From Escherichia coli (GTDB lineage: Bacteria > Pseudomonadota > Gammaproteobacteria > Enterobacterales > Enterobacteriaceae): a stretch of DNA of 64,000 bases. This document shows positions 17,687 through 19,478 of this stretch, in pieces. Position 1 is the first letter of the stretch. Each line of letters opens with the position of its first letter. A program made the position numbers and the translations under genes. The notes below the pieces were generated by a model. It searched no databases. It was not told the DNA's origin and worked only from the letters and a program-made list of their open reading frames with translations. The stretch lies in the NCBI RefSeq assembly GCF_024298765.1, contig NZ_CP101210.1, one strand, 5' to 3'.

Positions 17687-18241
17687 ATGCTTATTGGCTA
17701 TGTACGTGTGTCAACAAATGACCAGAACACAGATCTACAGCGTAATGCGCTGAACTGTGCAGGATGCGAGCTGATTTTTGAAGACAAGATAAGCGGTACA
17801 AAGTCTGAAAGGCCGGGACTGAAAAAACTGCTCAGGACATTATCGGAAGGTGACACTCTGGTTGTCTGGAAGCTGGATCGGCTGGGGCGTAGTATGCGGC
17901 ATCTGGTCATTCTGGTTGAGGAGTTGCGCGAACGTGGCGTTAATTTTCGCAGCCTGACGGATGCTATTGATACCAGCACACCGATGGGGCGTTTTTTCTT
18001 TCATGTGATGGGTGCCCTAGCTGAAATGGAACGAGAACTGATTGTTGAACGAACAAAAGCTGGACTGGAAGCTGCTCGCGCACAGGGACGAATTGGTGGA
18101 CGTCGTCCCAAACTTACACCAGAACAATGGGCGCAGGCTGGGCGATTAATTGCATCAGGCGTTCCTCGCCAGAAGGTGGCGATCATCTATGATGTTGGTA
18201 TATCGACACTGTATAAGAAGTTTTCGGTCGGAGATAAATGA
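17687..18241 (+). CDS. pin: Serine DNA invertase, Pin/Gin/Cin family
   Basis: MLIGYVRVSTNDQ active-site serine motif at N-terminus, C-terminal HTH; very close to e14 PinE as recalled; ATG at 17687 inside ORF-track 17651..18241. Confidence 0.9.
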   Translation: MLIGYVRVSTNDQNTDLQRNALNCAGCELIFEDKISGTKSERPGLKKLLRTLSEGDTLVVWKLDRLGRSMRHLVILVEELRERGVNFRSLTDAIDTSTPMGRFFFHVMGALAEMERELIVERTKAGLEAARAQGRIGGRRPKLTPEQWAQAGRLIASGVPRQKVAIIYDVGISTLYKKFSVGDK

Positions 18242-18298
18242 AACCGTAGCACGTCGTATGCAAGATCGTGCTGCGGTTTATGCTTATCACTTAAAGAC

Positions 18299-19072
18299 TC
18301 AAAAATTAGGTGAGTAACGGACCGGGGACATAGCTCCTTTTTTTCTTAATTCATCTGGTATTTTTTTTCCAAGATAAAGATTTGCTATTTCAGGTGGGGC
18401 TTCTCGACCTTCAAAACCATAGCGAGAACTTTGTGTTGCCTCAAAGTCAGGATCCTCGTCCCAGTATTTCATCGTAGGGAAATTTTCACGTGTTGATTTG
18501 AGCCATTTATCAGCAATGAAAACCCCTCGAACGATCCCCCTTACAGTAGCAAGAATGACTTCTGCTTGGCTGGCGCGAGAGACATTAATGCGCCAGCTAA
18601 ATCGAACCGCATCATAAAGCTCTGAATCCTTTGCACTTCTGTTAACGGAAATCATTAATGCTTTATGATGAAATATTATGGTTTCGGGTTGATATGTTGC
18701 TATCAACTCTTTGACATGCGCGGCGCCGAATTCATTGCTGCCAGCACCATTCATGATATTCGTTAACCCAGGGTAGGCATCAATAAGTGCAGCTTCAACT
18801 TCGTACGCCGTCTTTTCATCAGTCATTCCGTGTCGATGGATGACATGGATAACTTCAAGTCCTGCTAACCTTATTTCTCTAATTTGCTTTAGCTTGTTGC
18901 TCAGTAACTCGTCATCATCAGTCGCTGCCACTTCACCGCGCATATGGGCAAATACGCGGTTACCTTTGCCTTTCCCTACATAGAAGGTGCTTCCGTCCCT
19001 CGGATCAATCAATCGGTATACATACCAGCCAAGGTGTTCAATTACTCCAGAAGGAAACTCAGTAATATCCAT
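18299..19072 (-). CDS. GIY-YIG domain nuclease, orphan (257 aa), function unknown
   Basis: N-terminal GIY-YIG-type motifs (YVYRL...[13 protein letters not shown]); C-terminal 150 aa has no motif I recognise; low-GC gene convergent with pin and divergent from the methyltransferase. Confidence 0.7.
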
Positions 19073-19478
19073 TTTGCAATATCTATGAAGAATTATTTGT
19101 GAGACGTATATTAATGATCATTGCAAGGGCTCACAACCAGTAGTGTTGAGAAAACCATCGGAGAAATGAGGCTAAGCCTTTGAATTTACATAGTACAAAA
19201 AAGATACTTTTCCTCATAATGTGAGCTAATTTTATGTTTCGTTTGATGATTGGACCGGTCTCGAAAACCGTAGACACATAGTATGCGTTAATTTATGAAC
19301 AAACTACTTGTCTGCTGTTTTTCTGTCATTAGTCGTATATAGAATGATTCTCTATGCCTAACAAAGCATCACCAGTGCTAGATTACGTTGTAGTCACTGT
19401 TTAAATATCCAGATAAAACATTTCCTTCTGGGTTGAATGAGTGATAAAGTTTCACCCATTAGACCCCTTGGAGGAATT

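Follow-up and report, generated by a model that had tools for sequence, protein, structure and literature searches.

Temperate phages carry accessory genes in cassettes, the morons described by Juhala, Hendrix and colleagues, and the modular theory of Botstein holds that linkers, postulated genome-wide but rarely documented, separate the modules of such phages. P2-like phages and P4-like satellites reportedly contain defence hotspots that hold interchangeable anti-phage systems and are defined by conserved flanking core genes, and palindromes of ~35-40 nt, the REP/BIME elements, lie at the 3' ends of convergent genes and have been proposed as both mRNA stabilisers and recombination joints. Here we describe a cassette in a prophage of Escherichia coli, within a stretch of 64,000 nucleotides (contig NZ_CP101210.1, hereafter the window), that consists of a GIY-YIG nuclease gene with its upstream region and is bracketed by two copies of a 39-nt hairpin (HP), the right one truncated. 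The cassette, an accessory gene of the moron type in a defence hotspot of a prophage, is in itself ordinary, and the gene is already known. The difference from the usual description of such loci is that members of a single conserved hairpin family form the edges of many unrelated cassettes in different phage families, and that recombination joints coincide with them.

As in morons, the GIY-YIG gene is an extra gene between conserved neighbours that is present in some related phages and absent from others, it is followed by a stem-loop at its 3' end, and it is placed in the cargo region near the end of the prophage. By analogy with known morons, it may also be expressed independently. Unlike in morons, one conserved hairpin rather than their own terminators stands on both sides of many unrelated cassettes, and that hairpin is at the same time a recombination joint. 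Botstein linkers are resembled in that a short conserved sequence lies between non-homologous modules that are exchanged there: flanks reassort at HP and not at control positions, homology breakpoints fall at the edges of HP, and one hybrid hairpin was found (all described below). The differences from such linkers are that HP is structured and is limited to the cargo region between the tail-fibre genes and the attachment (att) site. With the P2/P4 hotspots the locus shares a fixed prophage position with interchangeable anti-phage systems, whereas here a 39-nt hairpin, in several copies, forms the boundaries, and phages of several families have the hotspot in common. Finally, HP is a palindrome of similar size to REP/BIME elements and is likewise found at the 3' ends of convergent genes, but its sequence differs by eye (the two were not aligned), its 1-8 copies per genome all lie in prophage cargo regions, and no RAYT transposase was seen in association with it.

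The original prediction, which was made from the letters of the window alone, had noted imperfect direct repeats on the two sides of the GIY-YIG gene, and these are present where they were placed, AAACCGTAGCACGTCGTATGC at 18241-18261 and AAACCGTAGACACATAGTATGC at 19265-19286. The 9-bp core said to be shared by them is also present, but the match is longer than this core, as 19 of 22 columns align with one gap and two mismatches. The left repeat corresponds to the 5' arm and loop of the hairpin with a 13-bp stem that had been predicted around it, and this hairpin is complete (Table 1). The right repeat corresponds to the 5' arm and the first half of the loop; in relatives without the neighbouring Dcm/EcoRII module the right hairpin is full-length (AAACCCGTAGCCACGTCGTATGCAAGAACGTGCTACGG), and in the window it is cut inside the loop at 19286/19287. 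Within the window the relationship between the two copies is faint: a covariance model of the HP family identified one full copy, the left hairpin (67 bits, E 1e-18), and gave the right copy only 10.4 bits, the left copy alone was recovered when 22-mer matches within three edits were sought across 64 kb, and a local alignment of the two intergenic zones had a score of 15 that was reached by 72 of 3000 shuffles (p ~0.024). The caution in the original prediction that a 9-bp core could be due to chance was reasonable on the evidence of the window, but comparison with other genomes shows the repeats to be real, because HP recurs in thousands of genomes and the homology breakpoints fall exactly on it.

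To locate these breakpoints, positions 17650-19480 were compared by megablast with 5426 complete E. coli genomes, the set to which the genome counts given here refer, and the matches were found to start or stop at the repeats. Matches to pin alone, the invertase gene on the left of the cassette, end at ~18243 or 18271; those that include the GIY-YIG and Dcm genes without pin start at 18241; those to the GIY-YIG gene only span 18239-19286; and those to pin and the GIY-YIG gene without Dcm end at 19286 or at 19270-19273. Individual loci (labelled here with L-numbers, of which L013-L132 come from viral contigs scanned with a stem-only pattern) gave the same picture. Filled sites have the order pin-HP-gene-HP-GGCTGGTGAACTTCCGATAG... 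in strain TW10828 and pin-HP-gene-HP-box in L004, where the box is a conserved element of ~60-230 nt often present 3' of HP (at 24200-24400 in phage lambda). Empty sites read pin-HP-GGCTGGTGAAC..., that is pin-HP-box (L051 and L118), and a single hairpin likewise stands between the tail-fibre gene tfa and the box in L006 (tfa-HP-GGCTGGTGAAC...). A filled query of pin plus gene was covered to at least 80% in 559 genomes. The expectation that an empty site would carry a single repeat was borne out, since 336 genomes cover at least 80% of a query composed of the pin 3' end, HP and the box, and the remaining matches to that query break at the first or last bases of HP.

The filled and empty sites, together with the breakpoints on HP, thus uphold the proposal of a discrete cassette that is delimited by the repeats and polymorphic for presence and absence. 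Two further suggestions of the original prediction were not supported. A homing event is contradicted by the identity of the GIY-YIG protein as the defence nuclease PD-T4-3/CMoRE, and a precise site-specific insertion by boundaries that in some loci lie outside HP (a duplicated tfa 3' end, an apparent pin remnant, and fragments of tRNA-Ser and ssrA). A duplication made by the insertion itself was also rejected, as the two copies are diverged members of an older HP family that is represented by a complete hairpin in empty sites, as was a transposon target-site duplication, given that the copies differ at 3 of 22 columns and that the empty site holds the whole 39-nt hairpin. Neither a transposase nor terminal inverted repeats were found in 18280-19264.

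HP is widespread. With a 50-nt query around the left copy, blastn matched 4912 of the 5426 genomes, with a median of 2 and a maximum of 8 places in each, and 1226 genomes cover at least 80% of the query; matches were also found in 182 phage records, including those of lambda, HK97 and Shiga toxin (Stx) phages. In all contexts that were inspected HP follows tfa or pin, or lies between cargo genes, at the tail-fibre ends of prophages, and the genes that adjoin it include those for SIR2, a diguanylate cyclase, a methyltransferase, a KAP NTPase and an acyltransferase. In K-12 a copy, located between ynaM and uspF, precedes the right end of Rac. Lambda has two copies, one just 3' of tfa (22581-22608) and one between ea47 and ea31 (24162-24208), so that the b-region gene ea47, which is uncharacterised and had no Pfam or PADLOC match, is bracketed by HP (920-947 and 2508-2534 in L134). 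A compensatory A-T pair replaces C-G in the first lambda copy. HK97 has one copy, which has an apparent pin 3' remnant before it; tfa is on one side of this copy, and on the other are the sib site, annotated in its own right, and the att core. The copies form one sequence family that recurs within the cargo region that runs from the tail-fibre and invertase genes to the attachment site in several types of Escherichia prophage, among them lambda, HK97, Rac, Stx phages and e14-like elements.

A scan of one genome per species with the exact 22-nt pattern, which diverged copies would escape, yielded matches in Escherichia only, apart from two tiny contigs. These two (L141 and L144, 2.5-3.2 kb), from Bacillota and Lachnospiraceae metagenome-assembled genomes, carry the exact Escherichia phage HP and probably represent contamination or mis-binned coliphage DNA. 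In several genomes the Prokaryotic Genome Annotation Pipeline (PGAP) calls the box that follows HP a pseudogene, either a partial 'capsid protein' or a partial 'nucleocapsid protein' (L004 4638-4718, L010 2525-2596 and similar); these calls look like artefacts of annotation on a conserved element that does not code for protein. A full-text literature search for four 13-14-nt HP strings found no paper, and apart from the Rfam family CssrB (see below) no description of HP was found in the literature searched, which covered sopE cassettes and morons, ea47 and terminators, and lambdoid defence hotspots.

Among the 132 loci at which the hairpin was hit, 51 had two or three HP copies, and these are direct repeats everywhere except in L118, which has two pin copies. 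The pairs bracket at least five cassette types, with spacings of ~1020 bp (the PD-T4-3 gene), ~1050 bp (a 222-aa S-adenosylmethionine-dependent methyltransferase), ~2700 bp (a methyltransferase and a diguanylate cyclase), ~1780 and 2670 bp (CapH/CapP-like pairs of a helix-turn-helix protein and an M78 peptidase) and ~4170 bp (PD-T4-3, Dcm and EcoRII together). The PD-T4-3 cassette was found after pin, after a lambda-type tfa and in a context with an ssrA fragment; conversely, pin is followed by the PD-T4-3 cassette, by the box or by other genes. Genes seen at the defence position after pin or tfa include PD-T4-3, EcoRII/Dcm, SIR2, Mrr-like and mcrA-type genes, and in the e14 element of K-12 it is mcrA, which encodes another modification-dependent nuclease, that occupies the same position after pinE. 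In two viral contigs (L113 and L040) a gene for an IpaH/SspH-like leucine-rich repeat effector, a hairpin, the 222-aa methyltransferase cassette, a hairpin and dinI lie in a row.

To assess reassortment, the 80 nt on either side of each HP copy were clustered and compared with control points 250 or 400 nt away. At HP, 22 left and 18 right flank classes gave 40 combinations, and 6 left and 8 right classes had several partners, whereas at the control points the number of combinations equalled the number of classes and 0-3 classes had several partners. An individual recombinant was also identified: the left HP of L002 is a hybrid in which a tfa-type 5' arm and loop, as in phage mEp460, are joined to a cassette-type 3' end (...GCGGTTTATGC), a join that locates a crossover inside HP. 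In the methyltransferase cassettes ~270 nt of the tfa 3' end are duplicated along with HP.

The left hairpin lies between convergent genes, as the stop codon of pin (TGA, 18239-18241) abuts it on one side and that of the GIY-YIG gene (18299-18301) follows on the other. As RNA it has a predicted folding energy of -26.9 kcal/mol (z -5.6) on the plus strand and -20.9 kcal/mol (z -4.0) on the minus strand, its stable G+C-rich stem has 13-15 pairs, as in intrinsic terminators, and its tails are T-rich on both strands (TTTATGCTTA on plus, TTTCATTTAT on minus). It is therefore a candidate bidirectional terminator or 3'-end stem-loop as well as the left boundary of the cassette. In the family alignment the helix is paired in 88.7% of cells, and the one variable pair is C-G in 19, U-G in 10 and U-A in 6 cases but never C-A, although the pattern with which loci were harvested allowed C-A. 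One position of the 5' arm carries an extrahelical base that may be A, C, G, T or absent.

The only match obtained in an Rfam scan of 18150-19450 was a partial one to CssrB (RF02799), the last 40 model positions of which correspond to HP at 31.5 bits (gathering score 76). CssrB is a ~180-nt Shigella flexneri transcript detected by northern blot, the 3' end of which was assigned from a predicted terminator (PMC3071730). Its terminator stem-loop is thus equivalent to HP, but the hairpin alone matches, below the gathering score, the 140-nt body of the small RNA is absent here, and the copy in the window follows pin. In L113 and L040 the first hairpin and the sequence just upstream of it match the 3' end of the CssrB model consensus. 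Taken together, we consider with moderate confidence that HP is a stem-loop at transcript ends, either a terminator or a 3'-end protector. The original prediction that it could terminate both convergent transcripts is plausible for this copy, given the stable stem, the T-rich tails and the predicted CssrB terminator, but a T tract is not family-wide.

A separate likeness was noted to helix 45 of 16S rRNA (50129-50166 in the window), the stem of which is identical, including a U-G pair, to the outer stem of HP and the bases that follow it (AACCGUAG...CUGCGGUUGG) within 18241-18283. The methyltransferase-type HP copies continue with CUGCGGUUGGAU, of which 12 nt are identical to the 16S 3' end, and the helix 45 site received 14 bits (E 0.05) in the covariance-model search. 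This likeness is probably a coincidence.

We lean towards the view that HP is a transcript-end stem-loop that doubles as a homology patch for the exchange and deletion of cassettes. At the RNA level, HP would end or protect the 3' ends of convergent transcripts and in this way insulate each cargo gene. At the DNA level, HP, often together with the box on its right, would act as a portable homology patch, because it is the only sequence common to otherwise unrelated neighbours. Red/RecT-type recombination needs only ~40 bp, and such phage single-strand annealing, or general recombination, between HP copies on separate phages or prophages could insert, swap or delete entire cassettes; filled sites would then read HP-gene-HP, and empty ones would retain one HP. 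From the joints we infer that exchange is homology-driven rather than enzyme-specific, and boundaries that in some loci lie outside HP fit an exchange of this kind better than they fit a precise site-specific reaction.

Several observations weigh against this view. Among 61 distinct HP variants, a T-rich tail is present on the plus strand in 20 and on the minus strand in 32, and 20 have neither; the family as a whole thus does not conform to a canonical intrinsic terminator, and the idea of a universal one was rejected on the ground that one third of the variants are without any T tract. A simple terminator scan missed the left HP, the 13-nt loop of which is above the limit of the scan. This loop is about as conserved as the stem, which a plain terminator does not require, and which hints at a sequence-specific partner or at a very recent spread of the family. 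Covariation is weak, with essentially a single pair contributing to it, and the stems were preset by the harvesting pattern. On the side of recombination, routes mediated by RecA, by Red/RecT or by microhomology may all fit the data, and there may instead be a fixed crossover point within the invariant 3' arm.

Some of these observations would be accommodated if HP were primarily a functional RNA or regulatory element, such as a stabiliser of transcript 3' ends, a processing site or a binding site for a protein, and the joints coincided with it only since selection removes recombinants in which genes are broken, so that joints would accumulate in any conserved intergenic element. Loop and stem are conserved across unrelated flanks, G-U pairs occur but C-A never does, which points to a plus-strand RNA, HP forms the 3' end of the CssrB transcript, and in the absence of a universal T tract its role may exceed simple termination. 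We nevertheless regard this as an unlikely account, if one to be taken seriously, in that control positions in the same intergenic neighbourhoods are almost without reassortment and a recombinant hairpin was seen in L002; it is, moreover, compatible with the homology-patch explanation rather than exclusive of it. It is quite unlikely that the repeats are att-site remnants of integrative elements which inserted in succession at tRNA- or tmRNA-like cores beside HP and then decayed, so that only terminal cargo genes were left between the att scars. The right copy does overlap a 19-nt identity to the tRNA gene serU, O157-type cassettes run into the 3' half and flank of serU, a fragment of the ssrA 3' end lies directly 5' of HP in L019, L001 and L012, and the Rac copy is near the right end of its prophage. 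On the other hand, most HP copies follow the stop codon of pin or tfa and have no tRNA-like core, the HP of HK97 is separate from the annotated sib and att core, the lambda copies are ~3.5-5 kb from attP on the known lambda map, and one and the same hairpin is common to phages with different integrases and sites. The att-remnant route probably explains the right end of this cassette and not the HP family as a whole. A related idea, that HP is the sib/tI retroregulator of lambda, has some appeal in that HP often stands last before attR and a T run on the minus strand is seen in many copies, but it was rejected, as HK97 has a sib annotation of its own 50 nt to the right of HP and both copies in lambda lie well away from attP.

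More specific enzymatic explanations were also considered. If HP were a dedicated structure-specific recombination site comparable to integron attC, the prophage end would be a site-specific cassette array, and attC arrays are resembled in that imperfect palindromes, all pointing the same way, stand between single-gene cassettes, and one variant has an extrahelical base. As many as three direct copies occur in an array, conservation of the loop is strong, the extrahelical base is in the 5' arm, and many joints lie at the first HP bases or in the invariant 3' arm. However, no recombinase consistently co-occurs with HP (pin is absent from the lambda, HK97 and Rac-type contexts, and none of the loci read has an annotated integron integrase, IntI), each cassette brings an upstream region of its own and is oriented against the neighbouring operon, some boundaries fall outside HP (at the tfa 3' end and the apparent pin remnant) and the window copy is truncated inside the loop, and HP ends in GCGGTTGGC or GCGGTTTAT, neither of which fits the attC core GTTRRRY. 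A dedicated site therefore seems very unlikely, and we give very little credence to its fullest form, an integron-like array in which a phage or host enzyme would recognise the folded HP through its conserved loop and extrahelical base and would take up and shuffle defence cassettes across unrelated phage families. The crossover site of Pin itself was rejected as an identity for HP, as the real sites at 15749 and 17606 share only AAACC with it by eye and HP cassettes occur in phages without pin. That the GIY-YIG protein is a homing endonuclease or a transposon passenger and the repeats its duplicated target site is barely credible: the GIY-YIG domain, a weak partial PHROG homing match (E 0.0038) and the presence/absence polymorphism of the gene are outweighed by a full-length match to PD-T4-3 and near-identity to the modification-dependent nuclease CMoRE, by the divergence of the repeats (19/22 and an indel), by the occurrence of complete family members in empty sites and beside unrelated genes, and by the lack of a transposase and of mobile-element terminal inverted repeats. 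The chance that the two repeats merely resemble each other is negligible; although 2.4% of shuffles reach their alignment score and the covariance model gives the right copy no significant score, that copy is complete at the homologous position in relatives, and breakpoints fall on both copies in hundreds of genomes.

If the homology-patch explanation is true, HP accounts for the way in which a given defence gene follows pin in one type of phage and a tail-fibre gene of the lambda type in a different one. HP is a concrete and abundant candidate for the linkers long proposed to drive modular exchange between phages, and to list everything between two HP copies would be a simple route to prophage cargo genes, many of those seen being defence genes. 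We regard the interest of the locus as moderate: HP is widespread, is present in lambda itself and offers a direct experimental handle on cassette exchange.

Table 1. Features of the cassette and its surroundings in the window
Feature	Position	Strand	Basis or remark
Pin-invertible tail-fibre segment	15749..17625	.	Crossover repeats 15749-15768 and 17606-17625; context, outside the cassette
pin (pinE-like serine DNA invertase), left neighbour of the cassette	17687..18241	+	Pfam Resolvase and HTH_7; pinE annotated in relatives
Left hairpin (HP), complete, AAACCGTAGCACG-TCGTATGCAAGAT-CGTGCTGCGGTTT	18241..18279	+	Folding; covariance model; breakpoints 18239-18243
PD-T4-3/CMoRE, GIY-YIG cargo gene	18299..19072	-	PADLOC, PDB, motif
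Upstream (promoter) region of the cargo gene	19073..19251	-	Conserved and found together with the gene wherever it occurs
19-nt stretch identical to the serU anticodon arm	19252..19270	+	tRNA-Ser(CGA) nt 25-43; serU sequence and ARAGORN
Right hairpin copy, truncated (5' arm and first half of loop)	19265..19286	+	Complete in L001/L004-type relatives; homology ends at 19286
Putative junction scar	19287..19315	+	~29 nt like the spacer and dinI 3' end after HP and box in mEp460/L113 (24/29)
Dcm methyltransferase	19479-20912	+	Pfam
EcoRII endonuclease	20947-22161	-	Pfam; with Dcm a second defence module, between cassette and ssrA
ssrA (transfer-messenger RNA, tmRNA)	22390-22752	-	ARAGORN and Rfam; prophage integration site at the ssrA 3' end

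The identity of the cargo gene is clear. Its product matched the PADLOC model for PD-T4-3 (PDLC04031) with an E-value of 4.7e-140 over residues 1-256 of 257, and it matched over residues 1-257 the PDB entries 9U75 (CMoRE of E. coli O157:H7, near-identical, E 2.4e-171) and 9U7U (E 7e-150); the open reading frame (ORF) also has a full-length match to phrog_5356. CMoRE, formerly PD-T4-3, is a single-component type IV restriction endonuclease that degrades DNA containing 5-hydroxymethylcytosine (5hmC) or glucosyl-5hmC, with a C-terminal domain that serves as the modification sensor (PMC12923530). The cleavage of both kinds of DNA and protection against T-even phages were demonstrated for the proteins of O157:H7 and of avian pathogenic E. 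coli (APEC) O1 (PMC12923530), and a study in native hosts found PD-T4-3 to be active against Tevenvirinae. Consistent with this assignment, the tyrosines Y17, Y19 and Y31 of the GIYxY-YIG motif (PMC12923530) are all present in the protein of the window (HLGW-Y17-V-Y19 ... Y31-VGKG). On the strength of the full-length match, the protein is predicted to be an anti-phage nuclease dependent on 5hmC or glucosyl-5hmC. As PD-T4-3/CMoRE has already been characterised, the cassette adds nothing on its function.

In Pfam the protein matched the LEM-3-like GIY-YIG domain only, and the match to a PHROG homing-endonuclease family mentioned above is weak and partial. A GIY-YIG homing endonuclease was rejected as an identity for it, as Pfam found no homing DNA-binding module in the protein and its C-terminal domain is a modification sensor, the hairpin is intact on the left, and on the right in relatives, and the hairpin flanks unrelated genes. 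A promoter scan upstream of the cargo gene gave nothing convincing; the published work on the activity of CMoRE used the native promoter (PMC12923530).

At the right end of the cassette, the 19 nt that are identical to serU (GGACCGGTCTCGAAAACCG) overlap the start of the right hairpin and are likely an att-site remnant. The cassette stops at 19270-19273 in L008 and in O157-type genomes, where the 3' half of serU and the native serU downstream flank come next, and this junction (L005, L008; L136 1473-1562) resembles the distal att junction of a phage integrated in serU. The tRNA reads AAACCGGAG where HP reads AAACCG(T/C)AG, and on the basis of this microhomology the right junction looks like a join between an att remnant and a hairpin.

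The stretch that follows the truncated copy, which resembles the spacer and the final codons of the dinI gene found after HP and box in mEp460 and in Shigella-type loci, suggests a deletion scar at the left end of the Dcm/EcoRII module. That left end was seen, among the E. coli matches listed, only joined to the truncated hairpin of a PD-T4-3 cassette, and a query for this junction was covered to at least 80% in 245 genomes. A sequence like a hairpin arm (TGTCTGCTGTTT) with a T run is present at 19309-19322, and may be a substitute 3' arm for the truncated copy, but the alternative fold is weak (-17.8 kcal/mol, z -2.1) and the arm starts inside the dinI-like stretch and extends past it.

At the other end of the module, L019 (5400-5470) has a 23-nt copy of the ssrA 3' end (TGGTGGAGCTGGCGGGAGTTGAA) after Dcm/EcoRII and directly then a full hairpin. 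This arrangement stands where the window (22340-22420) has the real ssrA, and similar fragments of the ssrA end precede the left hairpin in L001 and L012. These cases suggest that att remnants and hairpins have repeatedly been joined at GTTGAA/ACCG.

The window is part of an E. coli chromosome, of which 17650-19480 are 99.9% identical to strain 2015C-3163 by megablast, and the right end of the prophage adjoins ssrA, with smpB beyond. From left to right, the right part of the prophage comprises the invertible tail-fibre segment, pin, the GIY-YIG ORF, Dcm and EcoRII. The 20-nt crossover repeats are inverted and 95% complementary and bound a 1.88-kb segment beside pin that includes tail collar and tail-fibre-assembly ORFs; alternative tail-fibre C-termini and assembly genes lie on opposite strands. 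The 5hmC-dependent nuclease and the EcoRII/Dcm pair place two DNA-targeting defence modules of complementary specificity next to each other. A strong stem-loop with a T run (AAAAAGCCCGCATAAGCGGGCTTTTGTG) was observed at 22235-22265, between the start of EcoRII and the 3' end of ssrA, and is common to the window and L019.

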